From a virus (Duplodnaviria; Heunggongvirae; Uroviricota; Caudoviricetes), in IMG/VR virus record IMGVR_UViG_2703718861_000013: a DNA stretch of 64,000 bases; one strand, 5' to 3'. Both the position numbers and the translations under genes were made by a program. A model generated the notes under the pieces. The model ran no database searches and was not told the DNA's origin. It saw only the letters and a list, made by a program, of their open reading frames with translations. Position 1 is the stretch's first letter, and every line of letters begins with the position of its first letter. Positions 1,795 to 39,238 of the stretch are shown piece by piece.

Positions 1795-4700
1795 ATGGCC
1801 TATTCAGAGGAACAGCGTCCTGAGGCGCAACTCGGTAACCAGAATCGTAACAGCCTGAACATTCAGCAACCCGGCGAAACTGACAGCTATGAAGCATTTT
1901 TCTCTGATCCGAATCGCTGGAAGGATAACAGTACGTCGTTCAGCCTGGGCGATGTATTGCCAACAATGGGTAAAGGTTTCGCCCAGTCCGTCCGGGGAAC
2001 AGGGGAAATGGCCCGTGGACTCGGTGATGCGATGATTCAGAGCCCGGTAAAAACAGGGGCGCGTATTTTAAATGAGTTCAGCCGTATGGGGCTGCCGGGT
2101 GTCGCAACTGTGCAGGATATTTTTGCCGGTGGCAGCAGGGGGGCTGATGAGGTCATCGATACCCTGCCTGATGGCAAAAACGCGGTTACTGATACTGTCG
2201 GTAAAGGTCTGAAGGCAACCGGTAAGGCTGTCAGTGATGGTGCTGAAGCCACTGATGAATGGCTGACCGGTAAGATGTCGCCGGGTGCAGTTCGTGCGCT
2301 GAATACGCCGATGACCGAAGGCTATGATGATTCTGCGGTCTGGGTGGCGAAGGGTGTAAACCTGATTGGTGCGCTTGTACCTGATATGGTTGCTGGCGGT
2401 GTGGCTAAAAAGGTGGGTGATGTCACACTGCGAAAAATGCTGACCGCCGGGCTGGAGAAAAAATACATCGCGGCAGGGATGCAGCCGGAAAGAGCCACGG
2501 CACTGGCAGCAGAAGCTGTCGATAAAAAAATGCCGGATTTATTCCAGGCGGGCCTGATCACCCATTCCACAGCCAGTGCACAGGGGCAGAGTGCAATGGC
2601 GGCAGCAGATGCTGTTCTTAATGCGGATTACTCTGAGCTGGCGCAGTCACCGAAATTTCAGCAGACGTTTTTGTCCATTGACGCCGACCCGCAGCACGCA
2701 CAGCTTACTGATCGCCAGAAAATGGATCTGGCAAAAGAGCGTGTTGCCGATGAGGTGCGCGCGCAGCTGGCAACCGATCCTGAATTGCTGGCTGTGAATG
2801 CCATGGCGGCAAAACTGGGTGACGCACAACTGTTTAATCTGGTGACACGAGGCACAGCGAAGACCGTTAAAAGCGGCATTGTCAGAAATGCCACGGAACA
2901 GGGGGCGATTAATGCGGCGCAGGGCGGCTATTCACGCTATCAGGAAAACACGGCATTGCGTGAGACCGCCGGAATGGATGTGTCACCGTGGGAGGGCGTG
3001 GCTGACGCAACGATCGAAGGTGCAGCCTTTGGTGCTGCGATGGGGGCTCCATCCGGTGCGGTTGCCGGATATCGTGGCAGACGTCAGGCCGCAGAAGAAG
3101 CAGCCATGCGTGATGCTGAAACCGTGCAGCAGGACGACGCAGCCCCGCAACCAGAATCTGTTGATCCGGTGGCGCAGCATCGTGAATCCATGCAGGGGAT
3201 GAATCGCGAGCAGCTTCTGGAGCAGTATGCTGATGCGGATATGGCAACAGAGGGGGACGCATCCGCAGCTCATCGCCGGGAAGCTGCCAGCCAGTTGTTG
3301 AATGAACTGGACGAACAGGCGAAGCGACAGGCTGTGATGAATGAGCTGAAGGCGAAGCCGCGTTCTGAACTGCTTGAGGAATACCGCAGACTCAGCCAGA
3401 AAGAGGAGCGCACCGAGACTGAAGAACAACAGTTTCAGGCAATACGAGAAGTCATTCGCCCACAACAGGAAGTGACGCCGGAAGCACAGTCACAGCCTGA
3501 AAATGCGGAGGATGGTAACGGGAGCATTTACCCGACGGTGCGGTTCCGGGACCCGAATGAAGTCCGCATTGAAATTAACGGGAATGGTGCGTCCAGACCA
3601 GCGGAACGCATTGAAAAGGTGCGCCCGGACAACCGTTATTTCACGGATGAGAAAAGCGCCATGGGGAGTGATGTTTTCCGTAATGCCGCCGCCACCGGCC
3701 TGAAACCGTCCGTAGTGAAGAAAGGCGAGACTCAATATGCTGTTGAAATGGATAATCCTGCGTTCTCTGAAGATGTGGCAACGGAAACCATTAACACCCT
3801 GGCTGACGGAGAGCGTATTGCTGATGCTGACCCGATGGAGCAGCCCGCGTTCATGCGTGACCCACGATTCCGTGGTTTCACGGGGGATGATACGGAGGTA
3901 CAGGCCCGCCTTGCCCGTGGCAACGTGCCGACGGCAGAGGAGCTTGTACGTTCACAGATGGCTGAAGGTGATGCCGGTCCGACAGCACAGGAGTTAACTG
4001 AGCGTCCACGCCTGCCCGCTCCCGGCGATATTCATCCCGGACAGGGATATCCGTTACCGGGAGAGGTGGCGCGTACGCCGGATGAGAATCAGGCAGGACG
4101 TGGTGGTCGTTTTACCACAACCGGTGAGGTTAAGGGCCAGAGTTTCCAGAAAGGACAAGCTCTGGCACCGGAAAACGCCGCTGGTCGCCAGGGGGAAACA
4201 CTCGAGGGTGAAATGGTTCGTCGTGGTCTGCCGTCACCGGATGCGCAGAACGCGACAGCACCGGTACGTGAAGGGCTACCGGCTCCGGACATTACACACA
4301 ATGTCCGTATGCCTCAGCCTGATCAGCTTCCCCGAACTGTTCGTAACTCATTGCCTGAGCTCGCACAGCAGGCAGAAGTACGTCGACAGGCCGGAGGAAA
4401 TCGTGACATCCCGCAGCCTGAGACAATCGCACCTGAATCTGAAACAACAGTCGCTACTGACAGGGAAGCTACCGTGCGCGGAGGTGAAGTCAGGGGCAAA
4501 AAAATTGAAGACTTTGGTGAAGAAATTAAGGGCGCGGCAAAACACCGTTATGCACAGCTTGCTGAAACACTGGGTAAAACGCTGGAAGACAGGGATTATG
4601 TCACGCAACCGCTGAGCAAACTGTTCCCGAAACCGGACTACGCAAAACTGGCGAGCGAAGGGGCTGATGCTGACACCCTGGCAATGATAGCGCTGTATCG

Positions 4701-17678: not shown

Positions 17679-18705
17679 TTATATTTTTTCGATCTCGACC
17701 AGATTAGTGTGCTGCGGGTTTCCCTTCGCCAGTGGTGAAGGGCGCAGAGTGGTTAGCGTATTCACACAGCCGCCATGGTCGATTTTATCGCCAGACATAT
17801 TGGCCTCGTGCCAGGCTCCCTGGCCCATAGCGCTAACTCCAGGGAGAATACGTGGTGTTACTTTGGCTGGTAGCCGAACTTCGCCACGATGGTTAAACAC
17901 CCGCACCATATCGCCGTTGGCAATCCCACGTTTCTGCGCATCTATAGGGTTGATCCACACCTCCTGACGGCAGGCAGCCTTCAGGAGATCAATATTGCCG
18001 TAGGTCGAGTGAGTACGGGATTTGTAATGGAAACCAAACAGTTGCAGTGGGAAGGTTCTACGTTCAGGGGAGTCCCAGCCTTCAAAGGTAGAGGCATAAA
18101 CTGGCAGTGGGCTTATCACTTCATCTTTTTCCAGTTCCCAGGTACGGGCAATTTCCGCCAGCTTGCTGGAATAAATTTCAATCTTACCGGAAGGTGTTTT
18201 AAGTGGATTTGCCTCGGGGTCGTCACGAAATGCTTTGTAGGCGACAAAATGACCATTGGGATCTTTACGCTTATAGATACCCATTTTTTTCAGTTCGTCG
18301 TAAGACGGTAACGCCGGATCTTTGGCAAGCATTTTGGCGTACAGATGTTGTAACCATTGTTCCTGCGTGCGACCTTCAGTGAACTTTTGATAGACGTCAG
18401 GTCCAAGACGTTTCGCGACTTCACTCAGGATCCAGTAAATCGGTTTGCGTTCGAATTTTTCGCTGGTGACAGGCTGGAGGAAAATGAGATATCCCATGTT
18501 ACCGGCGTAGTCGTTAGGAATAATATCTTCCTGCTCAACGGTCATCAGGTCTGGCAGCAGAATGTCGGCATATTTTGCCGATGAGGTCATAAAGTTTTCG
18601 ATGACCACAATCATTTCGCATTTCGATTCGTCCTGCAGAATTTCATGCGTTTTGTTGATGTCAGAATGCTGATTAACGAGGGTATTTCCCGCGTAGTTCC
18701 AGATG
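17679..18705 (-). pseudogene. ynfE: 3' part of ynfE, separated from its 5' part by the 6.5-kb insertion
   Basis: Frame reads ...IWNYAGNTLVNQHSDINKTH... to a normal C-terminus; upstream codons are element-derived. Confidence 0.85.
18695..18705. repeat. left copy of 11-bp direct repeat agttccagatg (candidate att core)
   Basis: Identical 11-mer at 25258-25268; both lie at the ynfE/element junctions. Confidence 0.6.
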
Positions 18706-18770
18706 GACTCCATTGTCAGACGGATGGATGGACTTGAAGTAGTTGACTCAATGCTACTTAAGGTCCTGAT

Positions 18771-20354
18771 ATGACTGACATTAACCATGATAATACTGTA
18801 TATCCATCCAGTTCTTTCTCTGGGTCTCCCTATCTGTATCAGCAAGTCTGCACCTCAAGTCCTGACACAAGGCTGACACAAATCAATCTACTCAGCGTAG
18901 CTAAGCCTCAGTTAGTCCGTAGAGCCAATGGTCGATATACTATCCGCTTCAGACTCAAGGGACAGACCATCCCGTTTCTTTCAGTATCGACCCGAAGCAC
19001 AGACAGGAGAGTAGCCACAATGCGTCAGAGAGAGCTTGCAGCCACAGCTAAGTCCTTCATGTTGGATAGGCCTGATGTCTCGCTACAGGAGCTTACGGAC
19101 CACCTCCGGTCTATGGCTGAGCAGTTCCTGACAGACGCCAGTGATGACTACTGGAATGGACTTGAGGTCGCTACTCTGGTGGACGAGAAGTCCAACCTGA
19201 AGGAGCTAGCCGCTACGCAAGCCTTGAGTCTGGACCAGCAGAAGGGCATAAGGTTAGCGCTTGAAGTCCTGACCGCAGCACAGCAGAGGGTAGACACTGG
19301 TGATGCCTCTGGTCTGATTAAGCTGATTGATGATAATAACCATACTGATTACTCAACTATAGGCGACTCTACGTCAATTCTGAAGAATGAGCAGGGGGAT
19401 AGACCAGCAGTTTTCACACAGGAGCGTCAGCCATCTGTGGTTTTTTCAAGCCTAGTGTCCTCGCTGCTGGCTGAGAAGGTCCAGACCCTGAAGTCCTCCA
19501 GCTACAAGGACCTGTCGTCCTCACTGAATACCGTCTCTCGGTTCTTACCTGAAGACATGGACCTGATGTCCCGCTCTGAGTGGCTGGCTGTCAGGGACTC
19601 CATGCTGGCTGCTGAGGTGAGACCATCGACAATCAACAAGCTGCTGACTAAGGCGAAGATGTGTCTTGATTATGGCCTGATGAATGGGCAACTTGAGGGC
19701 CGCAACCCTATTGAACGGATGAAGCTGACCAAGGATATCGACTCCAAGCGCAGAGCGTTCACAGACGAGGAGCTGGAGAGACTTCTGGTCCGTGTTGAGT
19801 CTGAGTATCAGTTCACACGACACACGGCTCACACGACCTCTGAGGCCCGTAGATGGGCGTCTCTGGTGTCTGTGGTCACTGGCGCGAGGTCTGCTGAAGT
19901 CTGCCACCTGACTAAACGTGACATTGTCACCTTAGACAACGGTTTAACCTGCATCGACATCAATGAAGATGGGGACGGTAAGTCTGTGAAGAACAAACAT
20001 TCAGTCCGACTTGTACCGCTGACCGATGGGGCCTGTGGGTTCGACCTGAAGTCCTTCCTTGAATGGGTAGACACGCAGCCTGACGACGGCGGTCCTCTCT
20101 TCGGGATGACTCCGAGCGCCTACTCTAGCTGGTTTAACTCTAGGGTCCTGACTGAGGCACTGGGAGACGCTGAGAACGTTTCTCTCCATAGTCTGAGGCA
20201 TTGGCTGGCGACCCGAATGAAAGAGCGTGGAGTCAATCTGGTGGACGCTCAGGGCATCTTAGGCCATAGCAGTCAGTCAATTACGTATGACCTGTACGGG
20301 AAAGGACACGCTGTTGGTAGGCTGGCTGAGGTGCTGAAGACAGCTTTACTTTAA
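18771..20354 (+). CDS. int: tyrosine recombinase (integrase); start codon uncertain
   Basis: C-terminal R...HSLRHWLATRM...GHSSQSITYDLYG signature; arm-type repeats overlap the 5' end of the longest ORF, so the true start may lie downstream. Confidence 0.85.
   Translation: MTDINHDNTVYPSSSFSGSPYLYQQVCTSSPDTRLTQINLLSVAKPQLVRRANGRYTIRFRLKGQTIPFLSVSTRSTDRRVATMRQRELAATAKSFMLDRPDVSLQELTDHLRSMAEQFLTDASDDYWNGLEVATLVDEKSNLKELAATQALSLDQQKGIRLALEVLTAAQQRVDTGDASGLIKLIDDNNHTDYSTIGDSTSILKNEQGDRPAVFTQERQPSVVFSSLVSSLLAEKVQTLKSSSYKDLSSSLNTVSRFLPEDMDLMSRSEWLAVRDSMLAAEVRPSTINKLLTKAKMCLDYGLMNGQLEGRNPIERMKLTKDIDSKRRAFTDEELERLLVRVESEYQFTRHTAHTTSEARRWASLVSVVTGARSAEVCHLTKRDIVTLDNGLTCIDINEDGDGKSVKNKHSVRLVPLTDGACGFDLKSFLEWVDTQPDDGGPLFGMTPSAYSSWFNSRVLTEALGDAENVSLHSLRHWLATRMKERGVNLVDAQGILGHSSQSITYDLYGKGHAVGRLAEVLKTALL
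18863..18881 (+). repeat. two direct copies of tgacacaa (arm-type site candidates, left end)
   Basis: ctgacacaaggctgacacaaa; three further copies at 25170-25200. Confidence 0.5.
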
Positions 20355-20361
20355 GTAGGAA

Positions 20362-20409
20362 GACCCAAGGTGGAGACCATATACGGCTTGATGGTTGAGA
20401 CCTTGGGTC
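20362..20409 (+). other. perfect 9-bp inverted repeat (gacccaagg / ccttgggtc) with 30-nt spacer just after int
   Basis: Read directly; possible terminator or RNA processing hairpin. Confidence 0.4.
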
Positions 20410-20712
20410 ACTGAAGTCTGACTGAAGTTAGGGAGGGTGATAATAATCATAATCCCTCCTGACTATAGGCCCACTGGTTCGCCTTCGGCTGTCAGACTCT
20501 AAGTCTGTATGTGGTCTTATTTAAACTGGTTCCCTAACTCCAGTACTCCAAATTCCTATGGTCTCCTCTTGACATTCCTGTTTAACTGTGAGTCGCCTCT
20601 GGTCTCTCTTTATATATACTTCCTTAATTCCTGAGGCGTCTTTAGTCCTTGACATCCAGTCCAGCCTGTGAGTCACATCCTGTCGCGCTACTGTATGCAT
20701 CACCAGTGATGG

Positions 20713-38733: not shown

Positions 38734-39238
38734 ACAGGCTCGTGAGGCTCTGGATGCCTGGATATGTCGACCAGGAATGACACAGGAGCAGGCGACGATA
38801 TTAATCACTGAAGCATTCTGGGCTTTGAAAGAGCGCCCGAACATCGATGTTCAGCGTGTCACAGATGAAGGTGGCGCGGTTGATCAGCGAGCGCTTGGCG
38901 TTAATCGAGTGAAGATATTCGAACGCTGGAAGGCTATCGACACCAGGGATAAGCGTGAAAAGTTCACGGCGCTAGTGCCTGCAATTATGGAGGCTATCCG
39001 GATTAATGATTTCAGGTTGTATCGTGAAATTAGTGACGGAAAAAGCATCACGTACATGATCGCCGGGTTAAACAAAGAATATGGCGATGTGGTGGAGTCC
39101 GGACTGCTTTTTGCTGATCCTGCCGTAGTGGATCGTGAAACTGACGAACTTATAGAAAAAGCAATTGCTTTCAAACTTGCGTATCGACAGCAATACCAAC
39201 AAAAAGCTGGATGGAATTATGAGCCTTCTTTTTGCTGA
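38717..39238 (+). CDS. hypothetical early-region protein (173 aa)
   Basis: ORF following dicC. Confidence 0.4.
   Translation: MKITPEQAREALDAWICRPGMTQEQATILITEAFWALKERPNIDVQRVTDEGGAVDQRALGVNRVKIFERWKAIDTRDKREKFTALVPAIMEAIRINDFRLYREISDGKSITYMIAGLNKEYGDVVESGLLFADPAVVDRETDELIEKAIAFKLAYRQQYQQKAGWNYEPSFC

Follow-up and report, generated by a model that had tools for sequence, protein, structure and literature searches.

Positions 20355 to 20712 of the 64-kb stretch of DNA analysed here (the window) form a non-coding region directly behind the integrase gene (int) of a small island integrated in the Escherichia coli chromosome, and they contain two of the six copies of a nine-base word, CTGTGAGTC. 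The enrichment of this word in the island lineage is genuine, but the word is not a single device. Taken as a whole, the best explanation, which we favour tentatively, is that the two copies in 20355-20712 belong to a tandem promoter array in the control region of an integrative element apparently built to be driven by a K1F-like helper phage, and that the dispersed copies are arms of RNA helices. Judging from its sequence, the island is probably a satellite of virulent phages of the T7 group.

Distribution of the nine-base word

The six exact copies of CTGTGAGTC in the window lie at 20586, 20666, 21712 and 22879 on the plus strand and at 23355 and 25025 on the minus strand (plus-strand reading GACTCACAG), and all of them are confined to one island of 6.56 kb. 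The original prediction had placed five of them correctly and overlooked the copy at 22879, which is located within an open reading frame (ORF) of 163 amino acids (aa; 22818-23309) and contradicts the statement that the word is always intergenic; five of the six copies are intergenic, versus a non-coding share of the island of only 25%.

Shuffling of the whole window gave 0.44 expected copies versus the six found, and none of 100 shuffles reached six. With Markov models of order 1-4 built on the island only, 0.15-0.46 copies were expected and none of 2000 simulations reached four. The copies are not independent, as two of them are copies of a tandem repeat and two are the arms of one helix, and about four independent events remain, still above expectation. 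The enrichment check that had been suggested against shuffled sequence came out in favour of the word under every null tried. The suggested comparison with the T7 family set the six copies of the island against one in K1F, one in IMM-002, two in phiYIO1-1, one in T3 and none in T7, and 0-2 copies per genome of ~40 kb is about what chance gives there.

The tandem array and the RNA helices

The copies at 20586 and 20666 stand in two tandem plus-strand units with the core TTGACAT-N10-CTGTGAGTC. The first core (20569-20594) is followed by CTCTTTATATATACT and a -10-like TATACT at 20615-20620; the second (20649-20674) belongs to a fusion of the usual units 2 and 3, most islands having three units of ~82 bp and this window two. 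The general layout of a unit is cTTGACAT-N10-CTGTGAGTC(aca)TC, then a pyrimidine-rich (T/C) stretch and TATA(T/C)T, with units 1 and 2 continuing after the T/C-rich stretch into CTCTTTATAT(A/T)TACTTCC. Across 22 units (16 distinct) from eight islands, the cTTGACAT and CTGTGAGTC..TC blocks are at least 90% conserved, with TTGACA invariant in 22/22 and CTGTGAGTC the most conserved block of the array, while the spacer between them is variable in sequence and nearly constant in length (~10 nt). A more distant island reads TTGACAT-N10-CTCTGAGTCA. Two conserved blocks at a fixed distance suggest either a promoter or a bipartite protein site. The array is always linked to a 122-aa gene downstream (20765-21133, plus strand; phrog_23123), itself found only in islands with the array, and it is missing where the 122-aa module has been replaced by an HNH gene or another gene, and in the sister family of islands that carries a DUF4145 gene.

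Promoters of the T7 group are contiguous stretches of ~23 bp with an AT-rich part at -17..-13, a specificity region at -12..-8 and CACTATAGG(G/A)A around +1, and all of these parts are present on the plus strand at 20713-20735 (-17..+6), preceding the 122-aa gene, and again at 21142-21164, where 25 nt (21143-21167) are identical to K1F phi10 (25/25). Both fit the K1F consensus (t/a)AACTATCACTATAGG, of which K1F has nine copies, and both have the specificity region AACTATCAC of the K1F (Kayfunavirus) type.

We propose that each array unit may serve as a rightward promoter for the host RNA polymerase, with a usable -10 and a lost -35. In this alternative register, a good -10 is present as TATACT in unit 1 and TATATT in unit 2, and since the -35 is lost, such a promoter would depend on a factor that recognises the bipartite block, which spans about -58 to -33 from the start implied by TATACT and shows the partial dyad symmetry T.ACA-N12-TGT.A. 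The homologous stretch in a T3-type relative holds a good sigma-70 promoter, TTGGCT-16-TATACT, scoring 10.9 bits. Sites for other E. coli sigma factors, CRP, DnaA and T7 primase, compared by eye with their consensus sequences, did not fit the array. A scan of IMG/VR for TTGACA-N11-CTGTGAGTC gave 34 matches, judged to be at or below chance for a 15-base pattern; only one contig among them came from the island itself (L013, L065), and a similar-looking match in a Vibrio podophage was isolated.

A second kind of host control is suggested by sites resembling the LexA box, taken here as CTG-N10-CAG within a TACTGTATATATATACAGTA-like 20-mer. One of them, TACTGTATGCATCACCAGTG (20689-20708, plus strand, 14/20), lies between the array and the phage-type promoter and is the second-best CTG-N10-CAG site of the window; the relative L036 has a perfect CTGT-N8-ACAG at the equivalent position. 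The best match in the window, TACTGTATATCCATCCAGTT (18794-18813, 16/20), is directly preceded by the predicted int promoter CTGATA-17-GATAAT (18766-18813 region), and this pair of promoter and LexA box is conserved in ynfE-type islands. As the annotated int ATG at 18771 is upstream of the LexA box of the predicted promoter, the true start is probably further downstream. The word CTGTGAGTC itself offers only the CTGT half-site, and in no copy does a CAG follow at the required spacing. Control of the 122-aa gene would be shared by the array, the LexA box (20689) and the K1F-type promoter (20713): the SOS response or a host factor may activate the gene, as may, by a separate route, the polymerase of the helper phage.

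This arrangement recalls the early region of the T7 group, where three tandem E. coli promoters, A1-A3, stand behind the genome end and are followed by phage-polymerase promoters, a layout annotated in the T3 and T7 records. The array units are likewise tandem and co-oriented, have a perfect TTGACA, lie behind a genome-end-like sequence and precede the first gene driven by a phage promoter. Unlike A1-A3, they have no canonical -10 at the right distance, they contain an additional invariant 9-mer and are accompanied by a LexA box, and they are part of an integrated 6.6-kb element without a polymerase gene. A second point of comparison is offered by activator-dependent phage promoters with a poor -35, such as lambda PRE, where CII reads TTGC-N6-TTGC, and the late promoters of P2 and P4, where Ogr or delta reads TGT-N12-ACA. 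The array shares with them a bipartite element of fixed spacing that overlaps or precedes a defective -35, and differs from the P2/P4 late promoters in that its dyad is inverse and centred near -46 rather than -55.

The dispersed copies would, on the same proposal, be arms of RNA helices in polycistronic transcripts: a leader at 21712, a pairing of 22879 with 23355, and a 3' hairpin at 25025. The leader is a plus-strand stem-loop of ~100 nt (21687-21785) ending at the ribosome-binding site of the regulator gene, and the 9-mer (21712-21720) takes part in its helix 2 (21711-21717 / 21748-21754) and in the start of helix 3. Over eight distinct sequences, 97.4% of cells are paired versus ~50% with slid partners, and at five pairs both partners have changed. 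In the helix that holds the 9-mer, the two arms are CCTGTGA/TTTCAGG in this window, CCTGCTG/CAGCAGG in L036 and CCTGCCG/CGGCAGG in L005. The leader persists even where the downstream gene differs.

The copies at 22879 and 23355 are complementary to each other and enclose the 163-aa ORF. The 5' arm (22865-22905, plus strand; 9-mer 22879-22887) covers codons ~16-29 of that ORF, and the 3' arm, with GACTCACAG at 23355-23363, is part of an intergenic hairpin region (23317-23385, plus strand) that closely precedes the ribosome-binding site of the 328-aa gene. Three complementary versions of the pair were found, namely CUGUGAGUC/GACUCACAG here, UACUUGCAAGC/GCUUCAAGUA in L005, L034 and L074, and UGUCAUUGAGG/CCUCAAGUGACA in Rouxiella, and the peptide encoded by the 5' arm shifts with the version (NTVSL, NTCKL and NTCVI). 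Duplex energies range from -19 to -47 kcal/mol, cognate pairings beat permuted ones (p = 0.017), and in L002 the pairing reaches over the ribosome-binding site. We suppose that this pairing may couple translation across the 163-aa and 328-aa genes. In the Min Jou interaction of MS2, a long-distance RNA pairing from the coat gene to the replicase start couples translation. The island is similar in that an early segment of the upstream ORF pairs ahead of the ribosome-binding site of the next gene and in that the pairing is kept by co-changes that alter amino acids; unlike MS2, it is a DNA element with a polycistronic mRNA, its arms are ~470 nt apart, and the coupling is deduced.

Compensatory changes thus mark both the leader and the long-distance pair as conserved structured RNA, and because the word itself changes under this covariation, they argue against one protein reading all copies. 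The earlier idea of a regulator-binding motif comes closer to the evidence at 20586 and 20666, which lie in a bipartite element that looks like a promoter or operator, but a single reader of all copies is disfavoured. The remaining copy closes a 3' hairpin (24994-25033, plus strand) at the end of a 51-aa ORF, formed by CTGTGGGTG (24994-25002) and GACTCACAG (25025-25033); its fold (24985-25085) has an energy of -30.7 kcal/mol (z -2.4) and it is conserved in ynfE-type islands. Against Rfam, no family matched at E <= 5 beyond three chance-level microRNA/snoRNA matches.

The region 20355-20712 opens with a further structure, a plus-strand stem-loop at 20362-20409 that begins 8 nt beyond the int stop TAA (20352-20354). 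The inverted repeat reported there earlier is real, and longer than the 9 bp given for it: the outer arms, GACCCAAGGT (20362-20371) and ACCTTGGGTC (20400-20409), match perfectly over 10 bp and enclose an inner stem of 6 bp, with no U tract behind. The RNA fold has an energy of -25.9 kcal/mol (z = -3.7; none of 200 shuffles was equally stable), and the stem-loop is kept in relatives, L040 having a compensatory C:G -> A:T change. It may act as a transcript-end or insulating hairpin.

Several points weigh against this combination of promoter array and helices. As for the array, no acceptable sigma-70 -10 (with A at -11 and T at -7) occurs 15-19 bp past TTGACA, the hexamer at 17 bp being GTCGCC or GTCACA and that at 18 bp TCACAT, and a sigma-70 promoter with TTGACA as its -35 is ruled out by the lack of a -10. 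In the alternative register it is the -35 that is poor (TCGCCT; GTCACA at 15-16 bp), TCGCCT-16-TATACT of unit 1 scoring 7.0 bits, which is the most that a sigma-70 position weight matrix gave on the array versus 11-13 for K1F A2 and lacUV5; no array promoter passes a simple consensus scan. The last unit has no TATA(T/C)T block, and no candidate for the factor was seen among the island proteins, the model of the 122-aa protein having no fold match in the PDB. As for the helices, the test of the long-distance pairing is modestly significant, with nine lineages, and the T3-type ribonuclease III (RNase III) consensus (A)CTCAAGGTC...GGCCTTTATGAT(T), derived from ten annotated T3 sites (GAGTC/GACTC once in their 481 nt), is absent from the island hairpins. 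Finally, the explanation gives no account of why the same 9-mer occurs in the array and in three unrelated helices, nor of the ~4 independent events versus 0.15-0.46 expected, and the mobilisation of the island by a helper is deduced from sequence.

The same absence bears on the earlier idea of processing sites. Four copies do lie in RNA helices, two of them supported by covariation, and the intergenic stem-loops just before ribosome-binding sites (21687-21785; 23317-23341) resemble the RNase III hairpins of T7 and T3; unlike those, they are without the conserved T3 site sequence, and so the helices are not classed as RNase III sites.

Competing explanations of the word

Among the alternatives, the one that survives best is that all copies are sites for one DNA-binding protein of the island or the helper, be it a repressor acting like the stoperator system of mycobacteriophages or an initiator like P4 alpha with its ori/crr octamers, the tandem array being the main operator or iteron cluster. 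It would suit a strict asymmetric 9-10-mer that is 13- to 40-fold enriched and almost only intergenic, and array units in tandem with fixed geometry; possible binders are the KilA-N protein, the array-linked 122-aa protein and a 52-aa ORF that is AP2-like by eye only. We nonetheless regard it as unlikely. At 21712 and 22879/23355 the word is swapped in other lineages while the pairing is kept, which indicates that the constraint there is on pairing and not on the word. No island protein co-varies with the dispersed copies, and none shows fold or family evidence of a specific binder; the presence of the 52-aa ORF does not track the motif, and we rejected it as the binder. Stoperators are one-directional, whereas four copies here are co-directional and two opposite, and no repressor was identified among the island proteins.

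An RNA-RNA network between plus copies (CUGUGAGUC) and minus copies (GACUCACAG), like P4 CI seqA/seqB/seqC or P1 c4, is to our minds improbable. Host-driven transcripts bearing the array would fold or terminate differently from helper-driven ones that start past it, and the array copies would compete for the GACUCACAG arms. Plus and minus copies are indeed perfectly complementary over 9-12 nt, the 22879/23355 pairing is supported by covariation, and the array lies upstream of both phage-type promoters, so that it would be present only in transcripts from further upstream. On the other hand, no Rfam match to C4 or another family was obtained in spite of the complementary repeats, the array RNA carries no structure signal (z -1.1 and +0.5), L036, L038 and L040 have arrays but no minus copy, and 21712 and 25025 already have local partners.

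Still less can be said for a role in helper packaging, with the word taken as a counterpart of the short repeats that flank genome ends in the T7 group (CCTACAGTC for K1F, CCTAAAG for T7) or of terminase cutting signals, which we think very unlikely. At the end of its terminal repeat K1F reads CTCTGAGTCTC|TATCTGT, and its left end, read inward, is CTGTGAGA, each one mismatch from the word; the copy at 25025 precedes the predicted left end by 48 nt, in a place occupied by (G)ACCTACAGT repeats in Kayfunaviruses; and the right-end hairpin of the helper lies in 20355-20712 itself. These resemblances are at chance level for sequences of this size (by an estimate of how many 8/9 and 16/20 matches to expect), the array copies are oriented opposite to the K1F repeats, and helper genomes have only 0-2 copies, at unconserved places. 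Moreover, the true junction mimics occupy other positions (18818-18842 and 25038-25130) and occur in all lineages, whereas the 9-mer is missing from the tRNA-Gly (outside the 163-aa ORF), Rouxiella and T3-type relatives. We also rejected GACTCACAGT at 25025 as a mimic of the K1F left end TCTCACAGT, the true mimic being 48 nt downstream at 25073 (placed by comparison with L005, L036 and K1F), and the likeness of 21712 (CTGTGAGTCTCCCTATCGTT) to the junction mimic, since a 16/20 match is by estimate at chance level for a 6.5-kb sequence. A Chi-like or polar reading of the ++++-- pattern was also discarded, as the orientation is wrong for end protection and the odds of the pattern are about 1-in-7.

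That the word has no function, its copies resulting from tandem duplication, coding constraint and a T7-like preference for certain oligonucleotides (words ending in AGTC), appears highly unlikely. Other 9-mers are over-represented as well (CCTGAAGTC x6), two copies arose by tandem duplication, another is constrained by the peptide it encodes (N-T-V-S-L) and one comes from a lineage-specific insertion; yet none of the island Markov models, up to order 4, predicts more than 0.46 copies, the other frequent 9-mers are mostly coding versus 5/6 intergenic for CTGTGAGTC, and the array has kept CTGTGAGTC above all its other blocks. Finally, the original idea of degenerate T7 promoter halves, under which GACTCACAG would be an upstream half that binds phage RNA polymerase, can largely be dismissed: GACTCAC is identical to T7 promoter -11..-5, but neither CTGTGAGTC nor GACTCACAG has the TATA(G) initiation part or the AT-rich -17..-13 part, the phage-type promoters of the island use AACTATCAC and not GACTCAC, and the word is absent from relatives with T3- or T7-type promoters, including L080 with its T7-type promoter.

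The island and its probable helper signals

The island (18695-25268, plus strand) is bounded by AGTTCCAGATG repeats inside ynfE, 6563 bp from repeat to repeat, in a window that is E. coli chromosome; the C-terminal part of ynfE ends near 18700 and the N-terminal part starts from 25211. A published survey of integrative elements (PMC7192596) names this gene as an integration site. Every gene of the island is encoded on the plus strand; the set comprises a tyrosine integrase, the 122-aa gene, a KilA-N gene, ORFs of 55, 163 and 328 aa, a 79-aa homologue of gp7.3, and two or three further small ORFs. The tyrosine integrase, the AGTTCCAGATG attachment (att) repeats in ynfE and a size far below that of the helper are those of a satellite in general, and its virion gene set is incomplete. 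Only the 79-aa ORF (24386-24625), homologous to the "host range and adsorption" virion protein gp7.3 of K1F/T7, matches helper virion genes, and for no other island gene could a helper homologue be detected.

Less is revealed by the other proteins. The AlphaFold model of the 122-aa protein (predicted local distance difference test, pLDDT, 78.6) gave no PDB fold match, and its phage homologues are likewise without assigned function; for the 55-, 163- and 328-aa core proteins no family assignment was found. The core gene pair (22818-24380) encodes the 163-aa protein, coiled-coil-like by eye, and the 328-aa protein, for which an exhaustive search gave 64 representatives. Ig-like C-terminal domains on two distant relatives of the latter are the sole hint of a virion structural role; neither hhalign against K1F gp10 nor the comparison with PDB profiles gave a match, and its AlphaFold model is poor (pLDDT 40). 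The 52-aa ORF (24622-24780), resembling by eye a stand-alone AP2-type DNA-binding domain, is present in some islands only, and a terminator-like hairpin at 24788-24820, GGTCTGGACCAATGGTCTGGACC then TTTGTTTTG, lies 3' of the small ORFs. Direct repeats occur near both island ends, TGACACAAGGCTGACACAAA (two to three CTGACACAA units) at 18863-18882 and 25170-25189 and TTGACTCAATGC at 18746 and 25206, and probably serve the integrase as arm-type binding sites. A non-coding stretch of 660 bp (21134-21793) downstream of the second K1F-type promoter contains GACC(G/T)CCTCTGTCAGAC twice and a 44-nt direct repeat in two copies (21423, 21619), each copy having its own AACCC-N7-GGGTT hairpin and A-rich tail; together with the promoter, this region resembles a T7-type transcription-primed origin.

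Of 5426 complete E. coli genomes, 313 have at least part of the island, and about 140 of the 313 have the region of 20355-20712. A sister family at the E. coli tRNA-Gly next to ETT2 (L004, L005, L033) and in Rouxiella (L075) has a different integrase and the DUF4145 gene, together with the same 163/328-aa core, K1F-type promoters and junction mimics; there, CTGTGAGTC occurs only within the 163-aa ORF in L004 and L033, and not in L005 and L075.

In addition to the two promoters, three sequences copy the genome ends of the helper. The plus-strand hairpin GGGAGGGTGATAATAATCATAATCCCTCC (20431-20459) matches Kayfunaviruses between phiOR and gene 19.5, 28-32 nt being 100% identical to phiYIO1-1, IMM-002 and Pisces, with 92% identity to K1F 38985-39008; a BLAST search of the non-coding region against 50,697 phage records gave nothing but matches to this hairpin. 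Upstream, at 18818-18842 (plus strand), CTCTGGGTCTCCC|TATCTGTATCAG mimics the K1F terminal-repeat end with its concatemer-junction pause site, CTCTGAGTCTC|TATCTGTATCAG, the alignment running from 18813-18842 to K1F 163-190. In T7 and T3, it is at this junction that the polymerase-lysozyme complex comes to a pause and encounters gp18/gp19, the terminase proteins (PMC3276506). Near the other island end, a plus-strand mimic of the K1F left-end junction (25038-25130; predicted left end 25073) reads ..AAAAATGTGAATGACCA|TCTAATACATTAAG..CCCCCATAGCCC..AAGTCCAGACC, versus ..AAAAGTTTGAGACCACA|TCTCACAGTTCAAG..CCCCATAGGCCC..AAGTCCAGACC in K1F. Both the pause-site and the left-terminus mimics are found in every island lineage examined, and excision would join them across attP into one terminal-repeat-like segment of ~320 bp. 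It may be added that 6563 bp x 6 is 39.4 kb, versus 39,704 bp for the K1F genome (L028), and a hexameric island concatemer would fill the helper head. Island-sized Logan contigs, considered as free or packaged DNA, turned out to be unitigs ending in att repeats and are uninformative.

The most telling relatives (L077, L078 and L080) were reached via distant homologues of the 122-aa protein. In L077 and L078 the promoter AATTAACCCTCACTAAAGGGAGA is identical to T3 phi10 (23/23), a T3-type pause-site mimic reads ACAAAAATCTGAGTGTCTA|TCTAATAGTTCA...CCCCATAGCCCTC versus ACAAAAATCTGAATGGGTA|TCTCATAGTTCA...CCCCATAGCCCCTC in T3, and a second T3-type end mimic reads GTCCTT|ATCTGTTAG versus GTCCCT|ATCTGTTAG (promoter and end mimics at 2141-2170, 2749-2778, 3870-3990 and ~930-990 of L077). 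L080 has the T7-type promoter CGACTCACTATAGGGAGA at 582-612. The helper-specific cis signals are therefore of the K1F type here, of the T3 type in L077 and represented by a T7-type promoter in L080, and helper specificity appears to vary between island lineages. If an element depends on a helper, its promoters and its end signals should switch in step with the kind of helper, and this is the pattern seen.

With P4-like elements, PICI/cf-PICI, PLE and PICMI, the island shares the format of a small integrase island with att repeats, a partial virion set and cis signals copied from the helper. AlpA, a primase and a Stl-type repressor, typical markers of known satellite families, were not seen among the island genes. 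What sets the island apart from the known satellites is the nature of its helper signals: promoters for a T7-type polymerase, a pause site of the concatemer junction, and mimics of the terminal repeat. The helpers of PLE and PICMI are virulent (PMC10803314, PMC10085698), as is presumed for that of the island. No description of a satellite of T7-group phages was found in the literature searched.

A more far-reaching proposal is that the island represents an undescribed satellite family with K1F-, T3- and T7-specific lineages, which would hijack the RNA polymerase, transcription-primed replication and concatemer-junction packaging of the helper, probably as hexameric concatemers, and which would also possess a dedicated CTGTGAGTC/GACUCACAG code. 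In the K1F/ynfE lineage, this code would consist of the factor- or SOS-dependent promoter array and the RNA pairings, the latter telling host-driven from helper-driven transcripts and setting the ratio of the two core structural-like proteins. We consider this conjunction rather unlikely, placing it after the single binding protein and before the RNA-RNA network.

The main value of the finding is that 20355-20712 sits in the switch region of what is apparently a new satellite family of T7-group phages; it is likely the region where host control (LexA boxes and the promoter-like array) is joined to helper control (the K1F promoter), and the RNA pairings of the island give directly testable predictions. 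The T7 family comprises textbook virulent phages that are used in phage therapy, with K1F targeting E. coli of the K1 capsule type. Should such islands carry promoter, pause site and end signals of the helper, they would offer a system for how a T7-type terminase and a paused polymerase choose cutting sites, a system for satellite expression by a single-subunit polymerase, and a system to ask whether such islands protect K1 strains from therapeutic phages.

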